64,000 nt of DNA from positions 1 through 64,000 of the IMG/VR virus record IMGVR_UViG_3300027728_000006; one strand, written 5' to 3'. The notes under the pieces are model-generated. The model worked only from the letters and a program-made list of their open reading frames with translations. It had not been told where the DNA came from and searched no databases. Positions 5,413-40,432 of the stretch are shown piece after piece; the first letter of the stretch is position 1, and each line of letters starts with the position of its first letter. Source of the DNA: a virus. A program made the translations under genes and the position numbers.

Positions 5413-6150
5413 TTATATAAATTGATTTAAAACCTCAAGCATTTTTTCTACTTTTTTATCTGCTATGCCTTCAGATCTGTAACATCCAGCAATATGAACT
5501 ATAGAAGACTCCTCCAGATTTATTAAATTTATTTCACTCCACATATTTCGCCGTTGTATTCCATATAAATGCACATATTTTGACAAAGTCGGAGTTAATA
5601 AATTTTTATCACACGCTAAAAACTCATTAAAGAAAGGTTGCTCGGATGATTTTATACCTTTAAATCTTTTAAATCTTTCTATATATTTTAGTAAATCTTC
5701 TAATGCTAATTTTTGATTTTTATTGAAACCGAATGTGCCAGCGTTAAACGCGGGTCCTTCCACGCATTGTTTTTCAAAAAGTCTAAAAAATTTAGGCATG
5801 ATTCTATCTTTCTCATTGATGCTGAATCTCTCTCTTACTCCGTGAATAACATCTTTATTACTATTAATAGTATCAAAAATATTACTTAACGGCTTTATTG
5901 CGAATGCGTCCGAGTCTAAATATAAAAAATTATCATAATGGTGAAACGACTTCCACTTCACTATGCTATATTTAGCTGTATAAAATGGGTCGAATTCTGG
6001 ACAAATAAATGACTCTACATCAAGACCAAAATCCACTGGCGTTATGCAGCAAACGTGTATTTCGGGGTTATATTTTCTCAAAAGTTTCAAATTATGCTTA
6101 AAGCATTCTAAATAAGACTCATCGAATGCGTAATATACAAGGTTTTTCAT
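5413..6150 (-). CDS. GT-A fold glycosyltransferase, GT8-like
   Basis: LYLDSD (DxD), FNAGTF, SEQPFFN, IVHIAG. Confidence 0.75.
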   Translation of the reverse strand: MKNLVYYAFDESYLECFKHNLKLLRKYNPEIHVCCITPVDFGLDVESFICPEFDPFYTAKYSIVKWKSFHHYDNFLYLDSDAFAIKPLSNIFDTINSNKDVIHGVRERFSINEKDRIMPKFFRLFEKQCVEGPAFNAGTFGFNKNQKLALEDLLKYIERFKRFKGIKSSEQPFFNEFLACDKNLLTPTLSKYVHLYGIQRRNMWSEINLINLEESSIVHIAGCYRSEGIADKKVEKMLEVLNQFI

Positions 6151-18515: not shown

Positions 18516-18728
18516 TTATCGATAAATTAACAATACTTTAGTTTTAAATAATTCTGCTTCTCTGCAATCGTCATACTCTCCGTAATACCATTCTCTCTTA
18601 AATGGACCACATACTTCTATTTGCTTTGTTCCTACTGGTAATGCATAACCCCCTTCGTATCCGTTAACAAGGATAAGGGTTTCTGGATCTAGTTTTTCTA
18701 GAATTTCAATTAGTTCTTTAGCTTTCAT
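18516..18728 (-). CDS. Conserved small phage protein
   Basis: MKAKELIEILEKLDP...GYEGG. Confidence 0.65.
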   Translation of the reverse strand: MKAKELIEILEKLDPETLILVNGYEGGYALPVGTKQIEVCGPFKREWYYGEYDDCREAELFKTKVLLIYR

Positions 18729-19803
18729 ATTTTTGATTTATTAGTTTGGTCCATTGTTCTTTGTTGATTATTTTACCATCTAAAACGGAAAATACAAATG
18801 AAGAATTTTCCTTAAAGTTTCTTTTGATCATTATTGCTTGGTCTTTTCTTGTTTCCACTTTTCTTATATCATGCACTACTTCTAGGATATGGTCAATATA
18901 TTTTTTTGCTTTTTCTCCTGCTTCACAAATTTTTTCTAGTTCGTCCTTTAATTGAACCGCTATCTCATAATCAAATTCAGTTTCAATTATTTTGTAAAAA
19001 ACATTATAACAAGGCATCTCTTTTTCGATATAAAATTCTATTAAATTTTTAGTAGAACTGAGTTGCGACTTAACTCGATGACAAAATAAATACCAATCCG
19101 ACTTCAACTTGATTCTATTCTGTCCATTATTGTAAGAAATCACAATGCCTTCTTCGCCTTTCCAATTCTTAATGTATTCGGATATTTTAGATAGATCCCC
19201 GATGTCATTAAACACATAAGTTTTTGGAGTGGGTATGTTCCCTATCTCTCTCCAGATCTCTGTTAAATCTCCAGAAGAAACAATAGTCATGTCGTTTTTG
19301 TTTATCGCCCCGAGTAGATAAAATTCTACATCTTTTGGTCTAATGACTATTACATTATTGGGAGTAACAATTTCAAACAACAAGCTGAGATGTTGGTTTT
19401 CTTTTAAGAAATCTGCTGCCTTTGGATATTTTTGAGGAAGCAATTCGAAATCTTTTGCGTTTTTCTGAGTTGAATAAGAAACCGCTCCTCTGGTTCTCAT
19501 TGAGAATTGGCTATTTACATGGTCACAAATAATCAAAGAGCCGTCTTTTTTCTCATCGCATTTCCAATCGCTAAAATTTTCTGGATTAGGATAGCAGTTT
19601 ATTTTTTCACCATGATTGAAAAACTTAGGCCAACCTGAAGACAACACGTTTCTATCTTTATCAGTAATGAGAGAACGATAGAATAAATTGTTACTATTCC
19701 ACTTCGCGTCAATTTTTGGAGTTATCAAATAACAATCTAAATCACAAAATTTATTTTCAACGATATTGAAATATTCCTCTTCTGCTGGAAGACTTACCTT
19801 CAT
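18718..19803 (-). CDS. RNA ligase, T4 Rnl1-like
   Basis: PKFFNHGE, motif I EKKDGS, FEI, EEGIV, KLKSDWY. Confidence 0.85.
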   Translation of the reverse strand: MKVSLPAEEEYFNIVENKFCDLDCYLITPKIDAKWNSNNLFYRSLITDKDRNVLSSGWPKFFNHGEKINCYPNPENFSDWKCDEKKDGSLIICDHVNSQFSMRTRGAVSYSTQKNAKDFELLPQKYPKAADFLKENQHLSLLFEIVTPNNVIVIRPKDVEFYLLGAINKNDMTIVSSGDLTEIWREIGNIPTPKTYVFNDIGDLSKISEYIKNWKGEEGIVISYNNGQNRIKLKSDWYLFCHRVKSQLSSTKNLIEFYIEKEMPCYNVFYKIIETEFDYEIAVQLKDELEKICEAGEKAKKYIDHILEVVHDIRKVETRKDQAIMIKRNFKENSSFVFSVLDGKIINKEQWTKLINQKYES

Positions 19804-19809
19804 ATTATA

Positions 19810-20520
19810 TTATGATTCTATATTGCTCCAAATTTCGTTAATGTCTAAAAGTTTATGCACGCAACCATTAACTCTTTCGGTCCAAGAACTATGAAAATGT
19901 CCATAAAGATGGAGTTTCGGCTTGCAGAGTTTACAAATTTCATCCATAATTGCCCTTTCCTCTGTAAGATCCTCTATTAGATAAGCATCTTCTCTTGCCC
20001 AACCATAAACCATTTCGTTAAACTGCTGCGGAAAGCACCAGGTTGGAGCAGTATGGGTTACGAGAATATCTACTTCCTGGCATTTTTCCCTATCAAATTT
20101 AACCGCTTCATCTTCCCAATATGAAATGCCTTCTTTTCTGGCGGCTCTGTCAATAGAAACAGCGCCGCCAATAAATTGAATTTTTTTACCATTATATTCC
20201 ATGATGGTATAATCTTCTATCAATTCAAAATTACTTAAAGAAACTCTGTTGACACCTTTAAAATAATCAGGGCCGTCATGATTTCCGCGAATAGACATGA
20301 AGGAGATATTTCTATCTTTAAACTCCATATTAAACCATTTATTATTTTTTTCTTGAGTTTTATTATCGGTAAATCCAATGCCCGAATCCCCAACGCTAAT
20401 CAAATAACAATCACTTATTTTTTTAGCATCTATAATATCAAAAAGATAAGACCATTCGCCATGGTGATCTCCTAAGAATAAAATTGGCTTACTGCCATCC
20501 AGAGTCTTCATCGTTGTCAT
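19810..20520 (-). CDS. Calcineurin-like metallophosphoesterase
   Basis: GDHHG, VGDSG, RGNHD, GGAVSID, THTAP, GHFH. Confidence 0.9.
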   Translation of the reverse strand: MTTMKTLDGSKPILFLGDHHGEWSYLFDIIDAKKISDCYLISVGDSGIGFTDNKTQEKNNKWFNMEFKDRNISFMSIRGNHDGPDYFKGVNRVSLSNFELIEDYTIMEYNGKKIQFIGGAVSIDRAARKEGISYWEDEAVKFDREKCQEVDILVTHTAPTWCFPQQFNEMVYGWAREDAYLIEDLTEERAIMDEICKLCKPKLHLYGHFHSSWTERVNGCVHKLLDINEIWSNIES

Positions 20521-20779
20521 TATTATATAATCTATATTCTTTTATTTCTTTTGTCAATACTTCTTTCAGTTTAAACAATGCCTCATCATGAGAATTGCAT
20601 TCCTCTACGATATCACCTAAAATATATCCCCAATGTTGCACATTATATTTTGGGGATTGACCATAACTCCATTTTGTTTCGACGTACCAATGGAAATCCC
20701 TATCTTTGCAATGATCTTTTCCCGTTAGAGATCTCCATTCTTCTGTCAATTTTGTAATTTCTTCTACAATTTCTTTCAT
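20489..20779 (-). CDS. Hypothetical protein
   Basis: ORF track. Confidence 0.6.
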   Translation of the reverse strand: MKEIVEEITKLTEEWRSLTGKDHCKDRDFHWYVETKWSYGQSPKYNVQHWGYILGDIVEECNSHDEALFKLKEVLTKEIKEYRLYNNDNDEDSGWQ

Positions 20780-21417
20780 TCTGGTTCTGTCTTGTAAGGT
20801 TCTTCTATTATGACGAAATAAAATCCAGCAATTTTTTCAATTTTGCTTTTGCTTCCTTTAGGGAGCGGTTTGTTTTTAAATGATTTATCGGCAATTTCCC
20901 ATGCTTTTGTAAAATCTTTTGACTTTGCTGCTTTATCCATAGCTTCTTGATATCTTTGTGGAATTTTAAATTCCTTTCGCGGCTTCCAGTATCCATTAAC
21001 TGCATCAATAATTTTAGGAATCGGAACATCAGAATATTGCATTGGTCCATTACCAGAAACGTTCATAATGGTTCTATAGCCATCATTTTGCTGATAATGG
21101 AGATATTGTTCAATTACTTTTTTAATTTCCCAAGCGGCAGTTCCGTCTTTCATTTGCTCGCAACCGACTCCGTAATACGAATTCGGATTTGTGCAAATAT
21201 CTTCATTTCTAAATGCCAATGTCCTAACAACGCTTTCAATTACATGAGTGTCAATATAATTTAAGCAATCCTTGTCAATAAAGGCGGTGGACATAGCCAT
21301 TGCAATTTGACCAGATCGTAGGCGGCTATAAACTTCAAGCGCCGTTACTAGAGTGGCGAGATGTTTTTCATCAAACTCTATTAATACTTTTTTAGATTCT
21401 GTTTTTTTCTTTTTCAT
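20776..21417 (-). CDS. Hypothetical protein
   Basis: ALEVYSRLRSGQ motif. Confidence 0.65.
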   Translation of the reverse strand: MKKKKTESKKVLIEFDEKHLATLVTALEVYSRLRSGQIAMAMSTAFIDKDCLNYIDTHVIESVVRTLAFRNEDICTNPNSYYGVGCEQMKDGTAAWEIKKVIEQYLHYQQNDGYRTIMNVSGNGPMQYSDVPIPKIIDAVNGYWKPRKEFKIPQRYQEAMDKAAKSKDFTKAWEIADKSFKNKPLPKGSKSKIEKIAGFYFVIIEEPYKTEPE

Positions 21418-21419
21418 TT

Positions 21420-21767
21420 TTAATCTTTTGTTGAATATGAGAAGTTGAATCCTCCATACCTTGAATATTTTTCGTCTACTTGTCCGGATTCAAACCAAAC
21501 ATCTGCATATTTTTGCGCGGAATTATCAAATTCTTTCATTTCCACGTCGAAGCCAAGTTTTTCCAATTCCAATGCGCAATCAGAATCTAAATCCCAAGGT
21601 GGACCATCATAAAGATTAAATTCTGAAATATATTTCACAAATTCCTCTTCACTATTGCCTGTATATGGATTTTCCTCTAAATTTTTGAAGTCGTCGTCGT
21701 CTAGTTCTACCGCCTCACTTGCTAAGTACAGCGTCACGTTTTCTCTTTTTCGAATAGTATATTTCAT
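21420..21767 (-). CDS. Acidic hypothetical protein
   Basis: Start MKYTIR downstream of TTGACA-N17-CAATAT (21778-21806). Confidence 0.6.
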   Translation of the reverse strand: MKYTIRKRENVTLYLASEAVELDDDDFKNLEENPYTGNSEEEFVKYISEFNLYDGPPWDLDSDCALELEKLGFDVEMKEFDNSAQKYADVWFESGQVDEKYSRYGGFNFSYSTKD

Positions 21768-21821
21768 ATCAGTGAGCATATTGATTTATTTTTTAGTAAA
21801 TGTCAATATGATTTAAAAAAC

Positions 21822-22260
21822 TGGAGGCGAGAGGGGTCGAACCTCTGTCTTTATAATATCATCTAAAAGGTGCTACATGCTTTAATGAATTTGACATTTT
21901 TTGACTAAAGGCTGTCTTGGCTCATTCGCCATCTTTTAAAGTCTGCCTACACGAGCGCAAGGTCTCGTATTACCTCTGTATAAGTTTTTCTATGATCTCT
22001 AACAGTTCATCAAAACCTCTGCAATTCAAAACGGATTTAGAGGATTACCGTTAGGCTCTTAGGCGGCGAGAGCGTAGGACTCTTCTTCAAAGCCGGCGAG
22101 AAACTCGTCGGCATTGTTGAATATGTATTCAGCTTCGGCTAAAAGATCAGAAGTATTGTCTTCTGCATTTAGTTTTTTAATCGATTTTTAAAGAGGCCAT
22201 CGATTAACCTCTACATGCACTTTTAAATCTCAATTATAAATCGAGAACCTGTACACCCCC
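21822..22260 (-). ncRNA. ssrA: tmRNA (one-piece), tag AEDNTSDLLAEAEYIFNNADEFLAGFEEESYALAA
   Basis: 5' GGGGGUG pairs with 3' CGCCUCC-A including G3:U70 and an A discriminator; T-arm AGAGG-UUCGACC-CCUCU; PK1 (GAGG/CCUC and UUAAUCGAU/AUCGAUUAA); resume context UAAAU-GCA; tag ORF 22166..22059 ends YALAA-UAA; CCA not encoded. Confidence 0.95.
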
Positions 22261-22266
22261 ATAATT

Positions 22267-22276
22267 TCAAAGAACA
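22267..22276 (-). promoter_or_regulatory. BoxA-like element just upstream of the tmRNA
   Basis: TGTTCTTTGAAA on the minus strand resembles the rrn/tRNA-leader boxA. Confidence 0.45.
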
Positions 22277-22279
22277 ATT

Positions 22280-22361
22280 GCTAGAAAGTTTTTCATTGGC
22301 TACCGTGTTTTTAACACGCTGGACGAATTTTACTTTTAAACTCTGCCTAATCGAGTCTAGC
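22280..22361 (-). ncRNA. Candidate structured RNA (three-way junction) upstream of the tmRNA
   Basis: GCUAGA/UCUAGC closing stem, AUU-GGC/GCC-AAU stem, hairpins GAGUUU/AAAUUC and CGUGUU/AACACG. Confidence 0.5.
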
Positions 22362-22374
22362 ATAAATATATACA

Positions 22375-22560
22375 CTATATTAGTGATTTAAAGTCTTTAA
22401 TCAATTTATTAGCATCATCTTCAAGATCGCTTAGCCCGATCATAAGCTTCTTTGCCCTGCTTGTGTCTTCATGATAATGATCTAGCGTCCTATCCTTCAT
22501 TAGTTTTATTTGATCAATTATTTCAGAAACCTCAACCATTTGTGAATATGTGTCGTTCAT
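22375..22560 (-). CDS. Hypothetical protein
   Basis: TAATG overlap with the ligase gene. Confidence 0.55.
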   Translation of the reverse strand: MNDTYSQMVEVSEIIDQIKLMKDRTLDHYHEDTSRAKKLMIGLSDLEDDANKLIKDFKSLI

Positions 22561-23570
22561 TAATCTTTGTAGTTTCTATTAATTAATTTAAATCCAAGCG
22601 GGCGACGAGAAGAATATCCGCGAGGATAAGAGGACGGTCTTACCACTATTCCTTCTCCCTCTAATCCGCTTTGATATTTTTGTTTATCTGCCAGTTCTTG
22701 AAGTTTTTGCAATGGATTTACCCAAAGTTTTATATTGGAGTCAAGTCCTAATTTGCACACGAGCGGAACAACATCACAATGTAAAGAATTTTCGCAAAAA
22801 TCCTTCATCTCTTCATAAGTCATATACTTTTTATTTTCACTAATTTGAAATACAAAAATCTTAACATCTTCCAGTTTAAGCTGATTGCGCTGGATTCCAT
22901 TACCACAAAGTTCGCCCTGGATTGTTCCCGTCCAATTTTCTGGAATTGTAAGTTTTTTTGCCGCTTTCCAGAAGGTATTATTTTCAGTTTCTTTTTTGGA
23001 AAGATTTCTCGTACAAACTTGTGTAAGAGCGCCGTCTTCAATAATTAAAGTTACAGAGCTTCCATCCAGCTTTTGCGTGACTGTAATGTGAGAATCGTGA
23101 TTAAGAACCTTTTCTACTAGACTTGGATCATTCAGCCCATTATCTTCATCTGTTTTAGATATGATGTTTGTTGGAAAATCTCCCAATGTTTCTCCAGACA
23201 AATTAGCGGGAATTTCTTTTATATATTTTGTAACGCCGAGCAATTCCGTTAAATCATATCCTTCTTCATATTCTTTGAAATTATCCGGAAATTCGCTCAG
23301 GGGAATAATTAAACCGCTGGAAAATTCTCCACGGAGTTTAATGTTTTTGATTCTAATTACTTTGTCTGGATTTTTTTGATCAACCAAGAACTCGGACCAA
23401 TTATAACGTGGGACAATGGTATCGATAGTAATAAAAACTACTTTATCACCATCTTTGTGAATTCCTTTTTTAACAATGGTTTGCCAACCTAAAATCTCTG
23501 AAATTTGTAAAGAGTCGGCGTTGAGATGGTCTTTGATATTTTTTATGATTTCAATTGATGCTAATTTCAT
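22560..23570 (-). CDS. RNA ligase, DRB0094/Rnl2 family
   Basis: MKLASIE...NADSL...GWQ N-terminal domain, LRGEFSSG, KTDE, QKLDGSS, QGEL.G.GIQ.N, EGIVVR, FKLIN. Confidence 0.9.
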   Translation of the reverse strand: MKLASIEIIKNIKDHLNADSLQISEILGWQTIVKKGIHKDGDKVVFITIDTIVPRYNWSEFLVDQKNPDKVIRIKNIKLRGEFSSGLIIPLSEFPDNFKEYEEGYDLTELLGVTKYIKEIPANLSGETLGDFPTNIISKTDEDNGLNDPSLVEKVLNHDSHITVTQKLDGSSVTLIIEDGALTQVCTRNLSKKETENNTFWKAAKKLTIPENWTGTIQGELCGNGIQRNQLKLEDVKIFVFQISENKKYMTYEEMKDFCENSLHCDVVPLVCKLGLDSNIKLWVNPLQKLQELADKQKYQSGLEGEGIVVRPSSYPRGYSSRRPLGFKLINRNYKD

Positions 23571-37831: not shown

Positions 37832-40432
37832 CTATTCTATCTCTTCATCTATTAATTCTTCATCTTTTATATCTCTGAGAGCCATGTATATTTTTGCAGT
37901 CTGAATCCCTAATTTATCCACATAACAAGCGTTCCCATCCTTCTTGGTTCCTTTTATAACTAACACGTCGCCTTCCTTCGGAAGATTTCCATCATTATCT
38001 TTTTTACATTCCTCAAGCTTATCCCATTTTTTAGATGAAAAAATAAAGCAGTCAACGGATCCAGTTTCGTCAGAGACTGAATACTTTACATATGGGTTCC
38101 CATTCTTTGATGTTCTTTTTACGATTTCATTCACCACTCCTACGAAAAATAGACTGCTTTTGTCACTCAATGAGTTGCAATATTTAATATCTTTAATATT
38201 TTCATTCTTCTTGCCGAAGATGGAGGAAAGACTTTCGCTGTAAGACATACCAAGAAGAGCTCTTTCGTAAAAAAAATTTGCCAATTCTTCATTTCTACTA
38301 TTCAACAAGTAAATAGTTTTAAATTTGTCATAATCCCTTTTAATTGTAGAAAACCTAGAACTCTTAATGATTGAACCACCTTTTTCATCTTTTATGGTTT
38401 CGTTCAAGGCTTTTACGCAATTAAGAACATCATCAAATTTTCCAGATTCAATTAATTGTTTTGTTAAAATTTTCTCTCTATCTTTTAGAAGATTCCACGT
38501 TTGCGCTTCTAAAACCAATCTGCTCCTAGATTTATTGTTTATACTTTGAAGAGCACCGGCTTGAATGAGCGCTGAAAGAACGCCTATTGATATCTTGGCT
38601 TGCTTTGCGGCGATGAATAAGTCAATTTTTGAATTATATTCGCCTCTAAAATTGATCATTTTTTCAATCACTTTTTTACTAATACCTTTGATTGCAGATA
38701 ATCCATATCTAATATTTGCGCCCTCTATCTCAAAGTCTTCGCCACTTTTCGCTAGGTCTGGAGGCAAAAGCTTAATTCCAAAATCCTTCATTTCTATACT
38801 GATAATATTAATTTCATTTAAACTATCCTGCTCGTTCTTTGCCATCCTCAGAAGAGCTAGGAAGAATTCTTTAGTGTGATTAAATTTAAAATATATAGTC
38901 AATGCTGCCATTGCGCTATAGGCTGCGCTATGAGAAAAGTTAAATTGATAGCCAGCACTGTCTTCACATACTTTCCAAATAGCGTCAGCTGTTTCTTTTT
39001 TTATATTTGAAGATTTGCACTTCTCATAAATCTTTGGCTTCCATTTCGCAATTTCTTCTGGGAGTTTTTTTCCGATAGCTCTTCTAATCTCTTCTGAATC
39101 AGAAAGAGAAAACCCAATTTTATTAAACATAGCCATTACCTGCTCCTGGTAAAGGCAAATGTTTCCGGTTTTTTCCAATACTGATTCGATAATTGGATCA
39201 ATTTCTGGCTTAACCCCAGTATTTGCATATGTTGCATATTGATCTGCGTAATCTAATGCTCCTGGTCTTGCAAGCGCAACTACAGCGCTGAGTTGTTCTA
39301 AATTTTTTGGCTTGACTTTTTGACAAACCTTATAATTTGTATCCGCTTCAATTTGAAATAAACCTCTTGGATTTTTTAAATCTTGAAGATGCGCATATAT
39401 AAGTTCATAATCTTCTAGATCAATTTTTTTATAATTTATACCCACTAACTTTGAGACTTCATGAATTACCGACACACTCTTTAAGCCAAGAAGGTCTAGT
39501 TTAATATTAATTTTTGTTGCCCAGTCCATTGTGAACGAGCTTACGGATTCTTTATCAGATGTTAATTCCGTTGGAGTAGTTTTATTTAGCAAATCGTGAC
39601 TAACCACAATTCCAGAAGCGTGAACTCCCTTATTTCTAATTAAATTTTTAAGTTTTAAAGCAATTTGATATACTTGCTTATTTTCATCGCACCAATTTTT
39701 AAATTCTTCGTTTGTCTCATAAATCTCCTCTGGCTCAGCTACTTTTCCAAATTTAGAAGTAAACAAAGGGGTAATTTTATTCATCTCTACTTCATCTTTT
39801 TCACCGATGATTTTTCCGCAATCTTTAATTAGAGCCTTACCAGAAAGGGTGGATACTGTAAGCATCTTGCTTGTTCTTTGAGGATACTTTTCTTCAAGAT
39901 ATTTTATGACTTCTTTTCTTCTATAATAGCAGATGTCGCTGTCAATATCTGCGATCATTTTTCCGTCAAGATATGTCACTCCATTTATAACTTGCTTTTT
40001 AGCTCTGGCTTCTGATACAAATCTTTGAAAAAATAATCCGTATTTTACTGGATCTACCCCAGTTACGCCAAGTAAATAAAGAACAAGGCTTCCGGCCGCT
40101 GACCCCCTACCAAGTCCAGTTGGAATATCGTTTTTATTACAAAAATTAAAAACATCCCAAACTATCAAAATATAATCTACAAAATCAAGTTTATAAAGAC
40201 TTTCAACTTCTTCAGTGACTCTTTCTTTGTACTTTGATATATCAAATCCTTGAGCCTTCCATTCTGGCATCTTTTCTTTAAAGCCTCTATTGCATAGAGA
40301 TTTTAAAATTTCTAAACTATTCGCATTTTCTGGAATAGCAAACTCGATGCGATCTTTTTTTTCGACTTCTACTTTTGGGCACCGAACACCATAAAATGGA
40401 AGGTTAAGTTTTGAAAAATTTTCTAAAAACAT
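37832..40432 (-). CDS. dnaE: DNA polymerase III alpha-like catalytic subunit lacking the N-terminal PHP domain
   Basis: GLGRGSAAGSLV, LFFQRF, ADIDSD, GVHASG, KLDLLGL, LYQEQVM, YQFNFSHSAAY, C-terminal OB fold. Confidence 0.92.
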   Translation of the reverse strand: MFLENFSKLNLPFYGVRCPKVEVEKKDRIEFAIPENANSLEILKSLCNRGFKEKMPEWKAQGFDISKYKERVTEEVESLYKLDFVDYILIVWDVFNFCNKNDIPTGLGRGSAAGSLVLYLLGVTGVDPVKYGLFFQRFVSEARAKKQVINGVTYLDGKMIADIDSDICYYRRKEVIKYLEEKYPQRTSKMLTVSTLSGKALIKDCGKIIGEKDEVEMNKITPLFTSKFGKVAEPEEIYETNEEFKNWCDENKQVYQIALKLKNLIRNKGVHASGIVVSHDLLNKTTPTELTSDKESVSSFTMDWATKINIKLDLLGLKSVSVIHEVSKLVGINYKKIDLEDYELIYAHLQDLKNPRGLFQIEADTNYKVCQKVKPKNLEQLSAVVALARPGALDYADQYATYANTGVKPEIDPIIESVLEKTGNICLYQEQVMAMFNKIGFSLSDSEEIRRAIGKKLPEEIAKWKPKIYEKCKSSNIKKETADAIWKVCEDSAGYQFNFSHSAAYSAMAALTIYFKFNHTKEFFLALLRMAKNEQDSLNEINIISIEMKDFGIKLLPPDLAKSGEDFEIEGANIRYGLSAIKGISKKVIEKMINFRGEYNSKIDLFIAAKQAKISIGVLSALIQAGALQSINNKSRSRLVLEAQTWNLLKDREKILTKQLIESGKFDDVLNCVKALNETIKDEKGGSIIKSSRFSTIKRDYDKFKTIYLLNSRNEELANFFYERALLGMSYSESLSSIFGKKNENIKDIKYCNSLSDKSSLFFVGVVNEIVKRTSKNGNPYVKYSVSDETGSVDCFIFSSKKWDKLEECKKDNDGNLPKEGDVLVIKGTKKDGNACYVDKLGIQTAKIYMALRDIKDEELIDEEIE

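Follow-up and report, generated by a model that had tools for sequence, protein, structure and literature searches.

The peptide tags encoded by tmRNAs are textbook short degrons, and the sequence ahead of their last few residues is usually thought to be of little importance. In Escherichia coli the front of the tag is bound by the adaptor SspB and its C-terminal LAA by ClpX. That SspB assists the delivery of ssrA-tagged proteins to ClpXP was reportedly described by Levchenko in 2000, and Hersch, Baker and Sauer are said to have found in 2004 that a wider spacing between two binding sites improved delivery in engineered tags. Longer tags do exist: according to PMC8403727, which cites Gur and Sauer (2008), the ssrA tag of Mycoplasma has 27 residues, and its extra hydrophobic and aromatic residues have shifted recognition to Lon. 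Phage-encoded tmRNAs have been reported from the mycobacteriophage Bxz1 group and Bacillus phage G (PMC4131195) and from huge phages (PMC7162821). Approximately 2.3% of sequenced phages carry ssrA, and methylophage Melnitz has a permuted two-piece tmRNA behind a glutamine riboswitch (PMC9004378). The roles proposed for these RNAs are sustained translation or protein degradation during infection (PMC4131195, PMC9004378, PMC7162821). A long or phage-specific tag is not described in any of these three papers, and the supplement of PMC9004378 gives no tag sequences with which lengths could be compared. Phage tmRNAs and long Mycoplasma tags are known; a family of phage tmRNAs in which a long tag is conserved appears to be new, in that a full-text literature search found no paper describing one.

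The locus reported here lies in the first 64 kb (the window) of a 104,351-base IMG/VR viral contig from lake water, estimated to be 67% complete. The window holds a one-piece tmRNA (ssrA) gene of 442 nt on the minus strand (21819–22260), which scores 92.8 bits (E = 8e-35; gathering score 47) over the full Rfam model RF00023 (model positions 1–374); the tmRNAs of its relatives score 125–135 bits against the same model. ARAGORN calls the gene at 21822–22260, also on the minus strand, as the only RNA gene in the window, and nhmmer finds homologues in 24 related loci. The initial annotation, made from the sequence alone, had placed a complete tmRNA here and proposed a scan with Rfam and ARAGORN. 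The gene was found by both programs and the completeness and position hold, although the strand had not been given and ARAGORN assigns a tag of 25 residues rather than the 35 that had been proposed.

In its general architecture the RNA resembles the one-piece tmRNA of E. coli (tag ANDENYALAA), with which it shares a tRNA-like domain carrying G3:U70, PK1, a GCA resume codon 12 nt further on that is preceded by A at -4 and U at -5, a template that lacks a start codon and closes with YALAA and a stop codon, and further pseudoknots before the T-arm. The 5′ strand of the acceptor stem, GGGGGUG (22254–22260, minus strand), contains the G3 of the G3:U70 alanine identity pair and pairs with 21823–21829; the 3′ strand, CGCCUCC, and the discriminator A occupy 21822–21829. 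The T-arm (21830–21846) has the stem AGAGG/CCUCU and the loop UUCGACC and is aligned to the Rfam model with high posterior probability. PK1 (22179–22212) consists of stem 1, in which 22208–22212 pair with 22192–22196, and stem 2, in which 22200–22205 pair with 22179–22184. Compensatory changes were found in ten of the 11 pairs of PK1 across 33 family members, with 98% of the cells paired, a result that none of 500 shuffles reached. The Ala acceptor stem, T-arm and PK1 that the initial annotation had recognized can all be read in the sequence, and PK1 additionally has the support of covariation. Every structural mark of a working tmRNA is present in the gene; charging, tagging and proteolysis are without experimental evidence.

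The gene departs from its bacterial counterparts in several respects. The template has 35 codons where that of E. coli has ten, and the RNA is 442 nt long compared with approximately 360 nt. In comparison with a standard bacterial tmRNA, the gene lacks an encoded CCA, lies in a phage genome without smpB, and encodes an invariant acidic helical core that is found in the phage family only. We note that the discriminator A is followed by GUU in place of CCA (21819–21822), and that CCACCA is encoded in many relatives.

In order to compare tags, 50 related viral loci were collected through the RNA ligase that neighbours the gene. A tmRNA was detected in 24 of these by nhmmer, compared with only nine by ARAGORN, and a scan of viral contigs with the tag alignment added at least 80 further contigs. 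The combined set comprises 100 loci, among which there are 51 different peptides and, when codons 6–23 are compared, 52 different coding sequences.

The reading frame of the tag is the point on which ARAGORN and the initial annotation differ. The GCA (Ala) codon at 22164–22166 on the minus strand, 12 nt after PK1, is the consensus resume codon in the Rfam alignment, and all 51 distinct tags begin with Ala. It is preceded by the putative frame-setting sequence CUAAAU (22167–22172), of which the A at -4 is retained in 99 of 99 relatives and the U at -5 in 96 of 99. The resume codon of E. coli tmRNA likewise lies 12 nt after PK1, and its U85 and A86 match the U at -5 and the A at -4 seen here (PMC2481249). 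When read from this GCA the template comprises 35 sense codons (22062–22166), in a frame that is kept in 100 loci, and ends at a TAA (22059–22061) whose place is shared by the stop codons of the relatives (86 TAA and 14 TGA). The frame from 22166–22164 translates as AEDNTSDLLAEAEYIFNNADEFLAGFEEESYALAA, which reproduces exactly the tag written in the initial annotation. A rescued protein would gain 36 residues, namely the charged Ala and the 35 that are encoded.

ARAGORN places the start at a GAA ten codons later (codon 11), both in the window and in nine relatives, which would make the tag only 25 residues long and the preceding ten codons an untranslated spacer. This site is not without merit, since the UUAGCC ahead of the GAA provides U at -5, A at -4 and G at -3 and resembles the UAGUC of E. 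coli. However, it lies 42 nt after PK1 rather than 12. Furthermore, its A at -4 is the third base of Leu9, a codon that occurs in the family as TTA, CTA, TTG and CTT, and this base has become G in 16 of the 52 distinct coding sequences through the synonymous change of TTA to TTG, whereas the corresponding A upstream of GCA is invariant. Codons 8–10, which the shorter tag would leave untranslated, evolve as coding sequence, with exchange of Leu and Ile at codon 8, four Leu codons at codon 9, four Ala codons at codon 10 and a pN/pS of 0.22. Together, the spacing from PK1, the invariant A at -4, the Ala-first tags and the behaviour of codons 8–10 favour the 35-codon frame, and we regard the 25-residue tag as improbable. 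As shown by comparison among the relatives, translation is predicted to resume at GCA 22166–22164 and to proceed through all 35 codons. A resume codon mapping further downstream, and so a short tag, would have refuted the initial annotation; the spacing, the A at -4 and the codon data all speak for GCA. In practical terms, ARAGORN returns a tag that is ten residues too short and fails on approximately half of the family.

The family tags are 32–35 residues in length, apart from two variants of 45 residues that occur on two relative contigs. The window tag is long, as had been claimed, at approximately three times the usual length, but it is not the longest in its family. Within the tag the sequence LLAEAEYIFNNA is nearly invariant across the family, with a pN/pS of approximately 0.1. 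The conserved core of the window tag, LLAEAEYIFNNADEFL, is encoded by codons 8–23 (22098–22145, minus strand) and has been seen only in the phage family. Among the 52 distinct coding sequences the core residues Glu11, Ala12, Glu13, Tyr14, Ile15 and Asn17 are invariant, and Leu9, Ala10, Phe16, Asn18 and Ala19 are nearly so. For codons 11–23 the mean entropies at the first, second and third codon positions are 0.26, 0.11 and 0.76, respectively, and the pN/pS is 0.095; in a smaller, earlier set of tags the variable sites numbered 5, 5 and 19 at the three positions. The codon-level check that had been proposed for the additional residues thus gave a pattern dominated by third-position variation, and the absence of amino-acid conservation that would have counted against the initial annotation was not what was found. 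Such a near-invariant core amid free synonymous turnover is strong evidence that the peptide has a function beyond its LAA end.

Conservation in a template of this kind could in principle reside in the RNA, and one part of it does. A hairpin of six base pairs (CAGAAG/CUUCUG; 22148–22165, minus strand) starts inside the resume codon and covers codons 1–7; among the sequences of the subfamily, of which 19 are distinct, 99% of its positions pair. Its two inner pairs show compensatory changes in this subfamily, and the linked replacements EDNT, DDDM and ENYI in the peptide arise because these pairs covary. A second subfamily, with NTDA(I/L)L, lacks the hairpin over codons 1–7. Part of the conservation in codons 1–7 is accordingly owed to the RNA hairpin, and the AEDN start that the initial annotation had called ordinary, while present, is in part shaped by it.

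It might be argued further that the whole template is conserved for RNA structure or function, for example by making the ribosome stay longer or by binding RNase R or S1, with the peptide irrelevant beyond LAA. The template does fold somewhat better than shuffled sequences (z = -2.3), which, with the covarying hairpin over codons 1–7, lends this idea some support. It is difficult to reconcile with the concentration of variation at third codon positions, with the free exchange of synonymous codon families, with the template pN/pS of approximately 0.1 and with the conservative nature of the amino-acid replacements (Leu/Ile, Phe/Ile and Asp/Ser/Ala). The other two frames of the template are, moreover, closed by stop codons in nearly all members. 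We consider a purely RNA-level explanation to be very unlikely. Judged from its codon pattern, the acidic helix-prone module is under strong purifying selection as a peptide.

The window tag contains ten acidic residues and no basic residue, giving a net charge of approximately -10, and this character is general in the family, in which the tags have on average about ten acidic residues and 48 of the 51 variants have no basic residue. An AlphaFold2 (AF2) prediction on the tag alignment (mean pLDDT 74.5) gives a helix over residues 4–17 (pLDDT 79–89), a break at Asn18 and a second helix over residues 19–33 at lower confidence, in keeping with the acidic, helix-like character that had been inferred. 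The template closes with YALAA (22062–22076), a putative degron of the ClpX/ClpA type, for which degradation is inferred only. Most of the distinct family tags retain this kind of end (LAA in 42 of 51 and AA in 47 of 51), and a few relatives end in EAA, LEA, LTA or LAV instead. The tag is composite, with the usual YALAA protease signal preceded by an acidic helix-prone module with LLAEAEYIFNNADEFL as its core.

We also note a direct repeat of 11 nt at 22061–22071 and 22091–22101 (ten of 11 positions identical, 30 nt apart and in frame), which encodes LAG in one copy and LAA in the other. The end of the tag may once have been duplicated internally and have left this repeat behind, but the support for this is weak, and the LAG is not retained across the family.

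The Mycoplasma tag is the closest precedent for the length observed here. It too is unusually long and rich in hydrophobic and aromatic residues, and it illustrates that length can go with a different recognition. Mycoplasma has, however, lost ClpXP, whereas the phage tag keeps a ClpX-type LAA end. The phage tags are also longer (32–45 residues) and much more acidic, and we see no resemblance between the two by eye, no tool having been used. The system of SspB and ClpXP offers a likeness of another kind, in the logic of a two-part tag with an N-proximal adaptor element and a C-terminal LAA. It differs in that the phage encodes no SspB and in that the 'spacer' is the most conserved part of the phage tag. 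In summary of the comparison, an uncultured lake phage family keeps a tag that is three to four times longer than usual.

The phage itself belongs to a group without a cultured relative. The record encodes a DnaE-like polymerase, a DnaB-like helicase, a UvsX-like recombinase and NrdA, and two RNA ligases and a metallophosphoesterase surround the tmRNA gene, all of which agrees with the phage setting assumed in the initial annotation. The DNA polymerase (37832–40432, minus strand) is of the DnaE-like Pol III alpha type, and no counterpart in the 50,697 deposited phage records reaches 30% identity to it, from which the absence of a cultured relative is inferred. The label 'T4-like' was considered and rejected, given the DnaE-like polymerase and an identity of less than 30% to any cultured phage.

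In 41 loci the same RNA ligase precedes the tmRNA gene, which lies 1.1–4.5 kb downstream (18718–23570 in the window). In the relatives, genes for tRNAs (Tyr, Glu, Thr and Met) usually come after it; there are no tRNA genes in the whole 104 kb record. No neighbouring open reading frame was consistently linked to the tmRNA in a sample of loci that had been selected on the tmRNA itself, and a scan for promoters and terminators performed no better than on shuffled sequences. The gene is accessory and dispensable in the group, since one close complete relative (G005, the L008 record of 202,880 bases), with 87% identity in the RNA ligase, lacks a tmRNA altogether.

With regard to origin, phage tmRNAs are generally thought to be host-derived (PMC9004378), and the present gene could have been captured recently as a host ssrA, in which case its tag would simply copy a long tag of the host, without phage-specific adaptation. 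The occurrence of bacterial tmRNAs with the same start, CUAAAY-GCA-GAA-GAY-AAY, is compatible with such a capture, although their tags have only 9 and 16 residues (L235 and L219). A search of bacterial genomes with this context in its DNA form (CTAAAY-GCA-GAA-GAY-AAY) gave 114 matches, approximately the number expected by chance and only three of them in tmRNAs, and did not identify a donor lineage. When 185,579 bacterial and archaeal species genomes (one genome each) were scanned with the two stretches of the tag that are most conserved, the pattern matched 19 times, in no case at a sequence that encodes a relative of the tag. Diversity within the phages also argues against a recent acquisition, with neighbouring RNA ligases that differ by up to 35% in protein sequence and a position downstream of the phage RNA ligase that is kept in the 41 loci. 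We find recent capture hardly credible. Equally long tags in the clade of the host would have undermined the initial annotation, and no relative of the present tag was met in the 185,579 genomes; as the host has not been identified, an unrelated long host tag cannot be excluded.

Other searches were similarly restricted in their yield. The tmRNA had no blastn match in the 50,697 deposited phage records, and the ESM Atlas returned only unnamed viral clusters with scores below 0.9. With a 45-residue tag of a relative as query, no longer protein with the core was found among 5.8 billion; the one weak match, of 87 amino acids (E = 0.08), is probably an open reading frame called across a tmRNA. So far, the tag family has been identified only in phage contigs, an assessment that is confined to sequence searches.

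The means by which the RNA would function must for the most part be inferred. SmpB (PF01668) is absent from the window, as the initial annotation had stated, and it is absent from the whole 104 kb record (67% complete) and from five complete relatives of 170–217 kb, four of which have a tmRNA. The phage would presumably use the SmpB of its host. From the canonical tRNA-like domain and the lack of a phage smpB we infer that the RNA would be charged with Ala by the host AlaRS and that host EF-Tu and SmpB would deliver it to ribosomes that have stalled because the mRNA is broken. Translation would then resume at GCA for 35 codons, and the rescued protein would receive the charged Ala and the encoded residues. 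From what is established for trans-translation, the terminal YALAA is expected to be read by proteases of the ClpXP or ClpAP type. Taking these points together, we consider it highly probable that the gene is a functional tmRNA of a large uncultured lake phage and that it encodes a 35-codon composite tag with a selected module specific to the phage family.

The role of the module is less certain. The tag probably does more than mark proteins for destruction, although its conservation is the ground for this statement and the function of the module is inferred. The helical acidic core may bind something specific. Our leading suggestion, held at less than even odds, is that the module provides an additional recognition site, through which a protease, an adaptor or a chaperone would be recruited or switched and the products of aborted translation in the infected cell would be cleared or handled as the phage specifies. 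The initial annotation had raised altered adaptor or protease routing, or an added docking surface, as possibilities only. More tentatively, the core could be an address label specified by the phage, which through its own tmRNA would equip every aborted product in the infected cell to dock on a partner that is not the usual ClpX pore. Should this be true, the partner could be an unrecognized phage protein or another protease or chaperone of the host, and ribosome rescue would become a route to the phage-controlled sorting, silencing or recycling of proteins. SspB is not encoded in the record or in four complete relatives, and ClpP was found in only one of five records searched, that of a relative; among phage-encoded SspB and ClpP candidates no partner for the module is in sight.

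The lack of a phage SspB and the near-absence of ClpP would also be in keeping with a role that is not degradative, in which the tag neutralizes rescued fragments or acts as a decoy for host proteases and so protects phage proteins. Under such a scheme truncated structural proteins of the phage could be kept soluble and out of assembling virions. The net charge of approximately -10 and the absence of basic residues from 48 of the 51 variants would suit this role, and the few relatives that end in EAA, LEA, LTA or LAV suggest that the terminal degron is not always needed. Against this, the retention of LAA in 42 and of AA in 47 of the 51 variants is hard to explain without recognition by a protease, and a role in solubility or charge alone has no need of an invariant sequence of nine residues. 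We therefore think a non-degradative role unlikely. The outcome could be a new degron, a new adaptor interaction or an answer of the phage to the broken mRNAs and stalled ribosomes that result from host defences which cleave RNA. The RNA-repair neighbours would fit the last of these and suggest that the tmRNA serves while host nucleases attack phage or host RNAs, but this neighbourhood is context and not evidence.

The sequence is represented in environmental data from similar habitats. Half or more of its sampled words are present in at least 14 metagenome runs from lake water or fresh water, and six metatranscriptome runs contain part of it. Contigs from four metatranscriptome runs, belonging to four different lake or freshwater studies, were aligned to 21400–22700. 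They are 85–95% identical and confined to 21823–22260, except for a piece of low depth at 22292–22358, and one contig of 379 nt from a relative starts exactly at 21823, the predicted 3′ end. The flanks of the gene are not covered in these four RNA assemblies. As the matches are assembled contigs of diverged relatives, the flanks of which differ in any case, they are uninformative on transcript ends and do not prove transcription of the present gene; they hint that RNAs of this tmRNA family are abundant in lake RNA.

In one metatranscriptome run (X17), a contig of a relative runs past the 5′ end of the tmRNA (22260) into the 3′ end of a tmRNA, forming a head-to-tail junction in which the T-arm and the acceptor strand are followed by UGUUG. 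This junction was seen in no DNA locus. It could reflect a circular or tandem RNA or an artefact of assembly; we note that the gene is flanked by RNA ligases.

Variation in the body of the RNA was also observed among the relatives. In approximately half of the related tmRNAs (loci L003, L004, L007, L016, L022–L026, L034 and L035) the T-arm is non-canonical, with the stem ACGGC/GCCGU and an 8 nt loop, UAUCGUAU, in place of GGUUCGA. These genes are missed by ARAGORN and their tags are equally conserved; the tRNA-like domain seems to remain functional in this variant form. In L034 there is an insertion of approximately 85 nt directly after the tag stop codon (approximately 5414–5500), and four relative loci have an insertion of approximately 30 nt in the downstream pseudoknot region, the loci listed with insertions being L034, L025, L029 and L035.
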